Shown one piece after another: positions 25,204-28,200 of a stretch of DNA of 64,000 nucleotides (the stretch's first letter is position 1; the number at the start of each line of letters is the position of its first letter). The notes beneath the pieces are model-generated. The model saw only the letters and a list, made by a program, of their open reading frames with translations. It made no database searches and was not told the DNA's origin. Made by a program: the position numbers and the translations under genes. The DNA comes from Dictyostelium discoideum (lineage: Eukaryota), in contig CM000152.2 of NCBI GenBank assembly GCA_000004695.1, forward strand, positions 4,640,001 through 4,704,000, given 5' to 3'.

Positions 25204-28200
25204 TTAAAATAAATTCCAAGATTCGAAAACATCTTTTAAAGATTCAATGATTTCATCAGAAGTAGAATTAATACTATTTGAAATTAATCTTTTTTCACTT
25301 TGAGATAATGATAAAAACTTTGAAATTAAGTCACCATCTAAAATGAATTTTGGTAATTGATGAAAAGTTGAAGGAGAGAAATGGAAATTTTGACTAAATG
25401 ATTTGAATGAACGATATTGTTTTGGATTTAAACCTGCAGTTTGTGGTAAATAATATAATTTCGATTGAATATGATAAAATAATAAATAAATTTTTTCATC
25501 CAATGGTCTTAATACATTTAATCCACCATCTAATGTACCAAATATTACTAATTGTTCTTTTTTTGGTAATCTATTATCATTTTTATTATTACCATTAATT
25601 TCTTGATTTCTATTATTATTATTATTATTATTATTATGATTATATTATTATGATTAAAATGATTTTTTTGATTTCTTTGATATCATCAAATTTTTTATTA
25701 TTATTATTATTATTTTGATTATTATTATTATTATTATTTTGATTATTATTTTGATTATTATCTTTTTTAAAATTTAATTTCATTGGAGTTCTAACGAATT
25801 TTTCAATATTTGAGCCAATATGAAAATCAGCTTTTGTTAATAACATTTGACCAGATCTTGAAGAAGGATCTTGAGGTTCAAAAGAAAATAATAAAATATT
25901 TTTATCTAAATCTGAAACTAAAATACTTAATGTTTTTTGATTTACAATGAATTCTGTTGAAAATATATTTAAAGCTTGATAATCTTTTGAGAGTAAATTT
26001 AAAGTTTTATTATCCTTCCATTGAAGGAAATAAACACTTTTATACATATCACCAATCACTATATAATTCTTAATTGTACAAATTGAACAAATATAGATTT
26101 GAGCGTCATAAAAAGACAATGTAACCAAACTACCAGTATAGAACTGATTAACTGTCAACTTTGGACCAATCGTCATCAATAGTAAACCATTGACACTTGA
26201 TAAAGCAGTGACTGGACCCTTTTGTTCCTTTTCATATAAAAGATTCAAACGTTTTTCACCCAATTCTTCACTTTCAAACTGAGTTTTATGAGAAACGATT
26301 TCAAATACCAATACTCTTCCTTTACATTGCGTGTCTTCACCAAATGTAAAAGCTGTGCCAATTACAAGGAATGGACGTGCTCTTGTGATACCATCGGGTT
26401 CTGTGAATTTTAGTGAGACTATTTTCATTGCCAATACAGTCTCCCTATCTTGAAGTGAAAAACTATCAATAAATTTCCAATTCCAATCGATTGTTGGATC
26501 AATTAATTTAATTTGAAATTTATCATCAGTTAAAATTGGTTTCTTTGAATCCTCTTGTAACTCTTGGGTAACTTGTGGAAATGATACAATAACAACATAA
26601 CATTTCGCTTCACTATGATATGCAATCTTATGACAACTATTCTTTGTTGGAATTCTTCTAATTGCAATATCATTTTCAAAATTCATTAAAGTTGATAATG
26701 TACAAATCTTTATAACATCTTTCTCTTTACTAAAATAAATAAATCCATCTTGACAACTTATATTATTAAATGATGTAAAAGTTTCAACTGTATTTGAATT
26801 ATTATTATTATTATTATTCGAATTATTACTATTTGAATTATCAGATGAATCCATACTATGTAATCTAAGATAACCTTTTTCACAAAATGCCCATATTGGT
26901 TTTTTACCACCAATGAATAAACCTCTTTTACCACTAATTGAACTAAATTCAAATATTCTTTTTTGACGATTTAAATTCTCTTCTTCTTCTTCTTCTTTTT
27001 TCTTTTTCTTTTCATCATCCATATCATCATCGTCATCCATACCATTTAATAATTCTTTCTCTTGTTGTTTTTGATAAAATTCCGTCACTGAATCTCTTAA
27101 TATAAATGAATGATTATATTTTTTAAATCTTAATTCACCATTCTTTTCTCTTTTAAATGATTTATAAATTATTAAATCTCCAATTTTATTAAACATCTAA
27201 ATTTAAATTAAAATATATGTTAATATATTTGTTGTTGTTTTTATATATTTTTTTTTTTTTTTTTTTTTTTTTTAAAAAAAAATACTTTACAAATAAATAA
27301 GGATCAGAATTATTAAAATTATGTAATGATATTTCAACAATATCTAAAATTTCAGAATTTTGAATTTGATTATAATTATTTTTACTATTTATACCATTCT
27401 CTTTTTGTTTTTGTAAATGTTGTTGTAATTGTTTTTTTGAAAGTGATGATTTTGGTGTTAAAACTTGTTCTAAAATTTGATTTTGTGATACATTTGTATT
27501 GATACCAAGTATATCATATTCAAATTTAATATCTGAAACTTTAAAAATACACTCTTGACTTGTTAATCTATAAATTTCATAACTTCCATTTGTTGTATAA
27601 ATATTTAAATAAATATTATCTTGATCTTTAATTTCAATTTCATTTTCATTTTCATTTTCATTTTCATTTTCATTTTCATTTTCATTTTCATTTTCATTTT
27701 CATTTTCATTTTCTTGTTTAATATCTTTCATTTCTTCGTCTTCACTTGATTCTCCTGAATCTGAATCTGAATCTAAAAATCCACGACTTTTATCCTTTTT
27801 CTTCTTTTTTTCATTTGATGGTTGTTGTTGTTGTTGTTGTTGTTGTAATTTTAATTTTTGATTTTTATTATTAATATTTAAAAATGATTTATTTCTATCA
27901 AAAAATAAAGAAGAAGAGAAAATTGATTGATTTAAGTTATTTGAAATTGAATTTATTGAAAATTGAATTAATTGATTCTCTTCATCAATACCTTTAAATA
28001 TTTGAATTGTACCATTATGAAATTGTAATAAAATGAATGGATCACAAATATAAGATGATTTAATTGGTTCATTGATTTGAATCTCTTGAATCACTCTATC
28101 GAATCCATTAATTAATTTAATACCACCTTGATAAATAACTACAATTCTTTTTCTACCAAATAAATTACCAATATCTAATGATTTAAAATTAAATTTACCA

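Follow-up and report, generated by a model that had tools for sequence, protein, structure and literature searches.

The window, a 64,000-nucleotide stretch of Dictyostelium discoideum DNA with a base composition of 21% G+C, carries on its minus strand the gene for CPSF1, whose last exon changes reading frame within a conserved domain. The parts of the gene are:

25204..30752, minus strand: CPSF1 (CPSF160) gene from ATG to stop, from open reading frames, canonical introns, Pfam and orthologue identity
30752-30609, 30418-29718, 29616-27291 and 27196-25204, minus strand: the four CPSF1 exons, from open reading frames
27197..27290, minus strand: CPSF1 intron 3 (GTAAAG...TTTAG), an example of its canonical introns

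CPSF1, also known as CPSF160 or Cft1, is the 160-kDa three-propeller scaffold of the cleavage and polyadenylation factor and belongs to the DDB1/SF3b130 fold family. The name given to the gene in a preliminary description of this DNA is correct. In Pfam searches its N-terminus matches the Beta-prop_RSE1_1st propeller (PF10433, E 4.1e-9) of the RSE1/DDB1/CPSF1 type and its C-terminal region matches CPSF_A (PF03178). The best relatives in the PDB are human CPSF1 (E 4e-42 and 4.5e-11) and yeast Cft1, with much weaker matches to DDB1 and SF3B3, and the closest representative protein is the D. purpureum orthologue XP_003287774.1 (76% identity). Similarity to the human and D. purpureum proteins extends from end to end. 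The Dictyostelium protein differs from the rest of the family in its long poly-N/Q/E/D insertions, and both of the probable errors described below fall inside one such insertion, a loop of ∼60 residues whose length varies between strains.

The three CPSF1 introns are all of the canonical GTA...AG type, short and AT-rich; the first contains an (AAT) run of ∼45 units at 30453-30597 (minus strand). Applied to the D. discoideum assemblies GCA_054859385.1 and GCA_054859355.1, the three-intron model yields proteins of 1777 and 1738 amino acids, exactly the lengths of the annotated products. In contig CM142509.1 of a third assembly, GCA_054883475.1, the annotation treats CPSF1 as a single gene whose product has 1744 amino acids, while the three-intron model gives 1721 there, and the annotation seems to differ from the model somewhere in the exon–intron structure.

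Within exon 4 of the window, the coding sequence passes from one frame to another. Frame A (minus strand, codon starts at 1 mod 3) is open from 27196, reads ...FHIGSNIEKFVRTPMKLNFKKDNNQ...KKFDDIKEIKKIILIIII and ends at a TAA at 25642-25640; its text ahead of the stop consists of ...FHIGSNIEKFVRTPMKLNFKK, a poly-N/Q tract and KKFDDIKEIKKIILIIII. Frame C, the +1 frame (codon starts at 0 mod 3), is closed by TAA TAA at 25650-25645 and open from 25644 to a stop at 25204, with a text that begins YNHNNNNNNNNRNQEINGNNKNDNRLPKKEQLVIFGTLDGG, carries ...NRLPKKEQLVIFGTLDGGLNVLRPLDEK... and finishes in SWNLF. A single CPSF_A domain is thus split: frame A matches profile positions 1-235 (E 1e-55) and frame C matches positions 244-318 (E 1.6e-12). 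Human CPSF1 is divided in the same manner, residues 1117-1317 matching frame A and residues 1333-1434 matching frame C (E 4.5e-11). These results confirm what had been described beforehand, namely that CPSF_A runs into the TAA on the minus strand, that the conserved C-terminus lies in another frame (the +1 frame opening at 25644), and that both halves belong to one domain. The features around the break are:

25204..25639, minus strand: conserved C-terminal coding part, from the tail of the poly-N loop through the final propeller strands to the C-terminal helices, ending ...SWNLF-stop (Pfam CPSF_A 244-318; human CPSF1 1333-1434)
25640..25642, minus strand: TAA stop, in all probability artefactual; after correction its T closes one AAT codon and its AA opens the next
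25643..25680, minus strand: probable mis-framed stretch, (I)KEIKKIILIII in the window and (N)QRNQKNHFNHNN(N) when corrected
25611..25637, minus strand: microsatellite (ATA)9 = (AAT)8 just 3′ of the probably false stop, encoding N8 in the frame of the conserved C-terminus, within a TRF period-3 array at 25572-25761

The tract length of the microsatellite is polymorphic between strains. The stretch at 25643..25680 has an unusual composition for its surroundings, with the codon ATA used three times in succession and a hydrophobic segment, IILIIII, embedded in a poly-N/Q loop.

An intron that is non-canonical or was missed could join frames A and C, and the short, AT-rich character of the other three CPSF1 introns is shared by the AT-rich linker between the two halves of the domain. 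However, a dinucleotide scan of the coding strand from 25794 to 25592 found no GT and no GC, so there are no terminal dinucleotides that bracket the break. With just 8 G's in this interval, the lack of GT is unsurprising on its own (P(no GT) ∼0.08). All of the in-frame GT–AG pairs delete the conserved ...KADFHIGSNIEKFVRTPM strands of the propeller, and a bridging GT–AG intron would remove FHIGSNIEKFVRTPM. The preliminary description had argued from the lack of AC on the plus strand between 25600 and 25794 that no canonical intron is possible; both statements are borne out, with an AC at 25794-25795 that straddles the boundary of that interval. Other assemblies moreover translate straight through the linker DNA, as described below, and we give splicing across the break practically no chance of being the explanation.

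To compare the break with other genomes, we fetched the CPSF1 locus with 10-kb flanks via orthologues of the neighbouring spliced alpha-amylase gene, whose protein in the window is identical to XP_640516.1 (DDB_G0281547) of AX4. The comparison covered three D. discoideum assemblies (GCA_054883475.1, GCA_054859385.1 and GCA_054859355.1) and one of D. citrinum (GCA_054859325.1); D. firmibasis was left out because synteny is broken there and the locus uninformative. Across the 5.5-kb gene, blastn revealed two extra A's in GCA_054883475.1 (contig CM142509.1) as the sole differences from the window:

25681, minus strand: site 1, a single A in the window versus AA in the three other D. discoideum assemblies (GATGAT[A]ATCAAAG), from blastn, alignment and an insertion test
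25643, minus strand: site 2, a single A in the window versus AA in GCA_054883475.1 (CATAATAAT[A]ATAATCAT), from blastn, alignment and an insertion test

The two sites are 38 nucleotides apart, and site 1 lies upstream of the microsatellite. At site 1 the window has the single-A form GATGATATCAAAG and GCA_054883475.1 the AA form GATGATAATCAAAG, which is also found in GCA_054859385.1 and GCA_054859355.1; at site 2 the corresponding forms are CATAATAATATAATCAT (window) and CATAATAATAATAATCAT. When one A is inserted into the window after 25681 and another after 25643, the result is identical to the GCA_054883475.1 gene at 5551/5551 bases. This two-base change suffices to restore the frame: IKEIKKIILIIII followed by a stop becomes NQRNQKNHFNHNNNNH..., the TAA disappears, and the corrected reading is ...NNNNNNKKFDDNQRNQKNHFNHNNNNHNNNNNNNNRNQEINGNNKNDNRLPKK.... 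The corrected exon, taken from the GCA_054883475.1 sequence, gives one CPSF_A match that covers positions 1-318 of 319 (E 9.7e-70).

The break is therefore the net of two one-base deficits, at 25681 and 25643, and the frame-A text is already out of frame from 25681 on. It follows from the restoration of the two bases that IKEIKKIILIIII, with its three rare ATA codons, is out-of-frame text and that the TAA is not a stop. Two other repairs of the window, a single deletion within 25647-25640 and an extra A in the A7 run combined with a 2-nucleotide deletion, proved wrong in detail, as the first missing base is at 25681.

The linker is read in one frame in all four of the other assemblies (three D. 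discoideum and one D. citrinum). Many poly-N/Q/D/E tract lengths in GCA_054859385.1 and GCA_054859355.1 differ from those in the window, and these two assemblies therefore represent independent isolates. The D. citrinum linker is largely different from that of the window, yet it is in frame. In D. purpureum the linker reads FVRTPMKFNIQSSSNGNNNNDQLVFFGTLDG, which is short and uninterrupted, and the linkers of three more distant dictyostelid or amoebozoan orthologues are likewise short and uninterrupted. These short, continuous linkers show that the two halves of the domain have to be joined, and they place the break in a lineage-specific low-complexity surface loop.

The loop itself (25700-25770 and 25611-25637) is hypervariable: from one D. 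discoideum isolate to another, its N/Q tracts vary in length by dozens of residues. One isolate, for example, has N32 (retrieved locus L017) where the window has N8, and all versions are in frame. In the retrieved loci the loop lies near 17100-17570 (L017 and L018) or near 17160-17400 (L020).

Because the window and CM142509.1 are similar but not identical, CM142509.1 is a separate assembly. The differences are mostly in long homopolymers, and wherever a long A/T homopolymer differs within the regions compared (1-16612 and 22000-36000), the run in the window is the longer one, by 1-11 bases. A cluster of C-versus-A differences between the two lies within a C-rich run at 24374-24403.

The systematically shorter homopolymers of CM142509.1, together with the indel-prone nature of Nanopore-based assemblies, raise the question of whether the window might be right and the extra A's be insertion errors in the other assemblies. 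The differences in CPSF1, however, are insertions into AA doublets rather than changes in long homopolymers, and they restore the conserved reading frame exactly. The reading frame is also intact in D. citrinum and in both assemblies of polymorphic wild isolates, and the assemblies draw on Illumina as well as Nanopore reads (PMC12745789). That two insertions should by chance restore a conserved frame exactly, with two wild isolates in agreement, is very improbable, and we regard a correct window beside faulty assemblies as scarcely credible.

Recoding has to be weighed as well. In formal terms, a stop in the 0 frame that is followed immediately by an open +1 frame with conserved sequence is the signature of +1 recoding, and the frame could be restored by programmed +1 ribosomal frameshifting at AUA UAA U or by transcriptional slippage in the A/T-rich repeat. 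Established +1 frameshift sites include UCC-UGA-U of antizyme, CUU-UGA-C of bacterial prfB and AAA-UAA of Euplotes. CPSF1 resembles these in its 0-frame stop and conserved +1 continuation, but its site is not conserved in relatives and has neither a slippery P-site codon nor a stimulatory structure. The tRNA-Ile would be unable to re-pair from AUA to UAU, and the downstream RNA has no evident structure (MFE −4.9 kcal/mol, z = +0.85). Slippage, which the preliminary description had put forward, is unsupported, since neither site has a homopolymer that is long enough (the nearest run is the A7 at 25671-25665) and the other assemblies require no slippage. The frame is intact in the other D. discoideum assemblies, D. 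citrinum and D. purpureum; unlike a programmed site, the CPSF1 break vanishes when two bases are restored, and this difference explains everything without recoding. Recoding or slippage as the source of the intact protein is accordingly a highly improbable reading.

A further possibility is that the laboratory lineage behind the window truly has both one-base deletions, so that CPSF1 is truncated after residue ∼1575 or rescued by recoding. CM142509.1 comes from a different assembly than the window, and the two probably represent sister laboratory strains (AX4 and AX2); they differ at a few other positions too. Such an allele, however, requires two independent deletions 38 nucleotides apart in an otherwise identical 5.5-kb gene. 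The protein would lack the final 75 CPSF_A profile positions along with the C-terminal helices, a part conserved between human and Dictyostelium. Such an allele would inactivate an essential gene, CPSF160/Cft1, in D. discoideum, which is haploid. Errors of the same kind are, in addition, documented in the AX4 reference (PMC5282741). We consider a real strain-specific allele unlikely, and more unlikely still that the lineage survives with a CPSF1 that is short of its last ∼146 residues or with low-level +1 recoding at AUA-UAA.

The simplest interpretation of these results, and one that we hold to be highly probable, is that the frame break is an artefact: the source sequence of the window lacks two A's in the low-complexity linker of CPSF1 exon 4. 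We infer that the fault lies in the sequence of the window rather than in the strain. That sequence is very probably chromosome 3 of the AX4 reference (8x Sanger), and GCA_054883475.1 appears to be AX2-214, judging from the near-identity of the two, which includes all microsatellite lengths, from the amylase protein identical to that of AX4 and from the 100-N convention for gaps; the homopolymers of the window, longer than those of the Nanopore-based assembly, fit the AX4 reference as well. The omission after 25681 would throw the reading into the wrong frame and produce IKEIKKIILIIII and a chance TAA, and the omission after 25643, 38 nucleotides downstream, would result in a net +1 shift for the conserved C-terminus. 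The organism itself would then have one continuous exon, ...KKFDDNQRNQKNHFNHNNNNHNNNNNNNNRNQEING...SWNLF, in a protein of ∼1721 amino acids in total that is made without recoding, slippage or unusual splicing. Of the explanations offered in the preliminary description, a 1-nucleotide sequencing or assembly indel in the repeat was thus right as to the kind of error, but two single A's are missing, at 25681 and 25643, rather than one. The junction is also not one event inside the (ATA)8/(AAT)n repeat, as had been supposed, since there are two deficits and site 1 is upstream of the repeat.

An internal control is provided by a neighbouring Hsp70-like gene, whose frameshift and in-frame stop are identical in the window and CM142509.1. 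Genuine lesions are therefore common to the two sequences, whereas the CPSF1 lesion is not shared.

Errors of this class have been described in the AX4 reference. Using RNA-seq, Singh et al. (2017, BMC Genomics 18:120) showed that bases are missing from it, for example in clcD (DDB_G0278639) and DDB_G0279477, and that curators had compensated for such omissions with ‘tiny introns’, 119 of them in 102 genes and sometimes several within tens of bases (PMC5282741). The newer assemblies, of AX2-214 and wild isolates, were made de novo from Nanopore and Illumina reads, compared with a coverage of 8x for AX4 (PMC12745789). CPSF1 resembles the ‘tiny intron’ genes in that the frame breaks between conserved parts of one protein where splice signals are impossible, in that independent sequence from the same species has the extra base or bases that restore the frame, and in that the errors cluster within tens of bases. 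It differs in that two bases are missing and in that the correction comes from genome assemblies, not from RNA-seq. Matching the entries of Table S1 of that study to the window by coordinate offset gave hits at chance level only. One entry (chr3:1684890-1684892, +, length 1) would lie ∼300 bp from the site, but only if the chromosome is reversed, and the neighbouring entries then misfit (PMC5282741): two of them land in a gene that is intact and on the other strand, and no repair is called for in the nucleoside-transporter genes.

The value of the result is practical only. The D. discoideum cpsf1 reference and gene model should be corrected by one A after 25681 and one after 25643, which gives a product of ∼1721 amino acids with a continuous CPSF_A domain; IKEIKKIILIIII would not be real protein. 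Where a conserved domain is split across frames in D. discoideum with no splice site, the Nanopore and Illumina assemblies should be checked before recoding is proposed. A real lesion in CPSF1 would be a striking finding, yet the evidence speaks against one.

Several other features of the window deserve mention. The alpha-amylase intron at 32366-32808 (minus strand, 443 nucleotides) contains segments that are unusually G+C-rich for Dictyostelium, such as CCTGTTGACGCCTGGTG and CCAAACGACCCAACAATGCCGCAAATCGCC, and has no Rfam match at the gathering threshold. At 17440-19686 (plus strand), adjacent open reading frames of 226 and 389 amino acids lie in different frames ∼50 nucleotides apart with no obvious GT...AG intron between them, which may reflect a further frame problem or a pair of distinct genes. 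An exact look-up of the 389-amino-acid frame among the gene products on record gave no match.

The Hsp70-like gene is a C-terminal fragment at 23100-23968 (plus strand), 2 kb from CPSF1. Its frame changes near 23150-23180, where ...RSIHPDEAVAYGVAM is followed by ...SNVKGTNDFVLMDIAPISLGIETVGG in the other frame, and it has an in-frame TAA at 23543-23545 (ISNDHNRFS-stop-ADFEEMVKAKD). Since these lesions recur identically in CM142509.1, they are real, and the fragment represents a pseudogene or else a gene with unusual splicing. The annotation of CM142509.1 has an HSP70 product of 401 amino acids at this position.

A 100-N assembly gap is present at 17191-17290, ∼3 kb from a tRNA-Met gene that is followed by a retrotransposon-like reading frame:

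20155-20226, minus strand: tRNA-Met gene
20471-21604: retrotransposon-like open reading frame of 377 amino acids with a C-terminal zinc-finger-like motif

This is the arrangement, a TRE beside a tRNA gene, that is usual in Dictyostelium.
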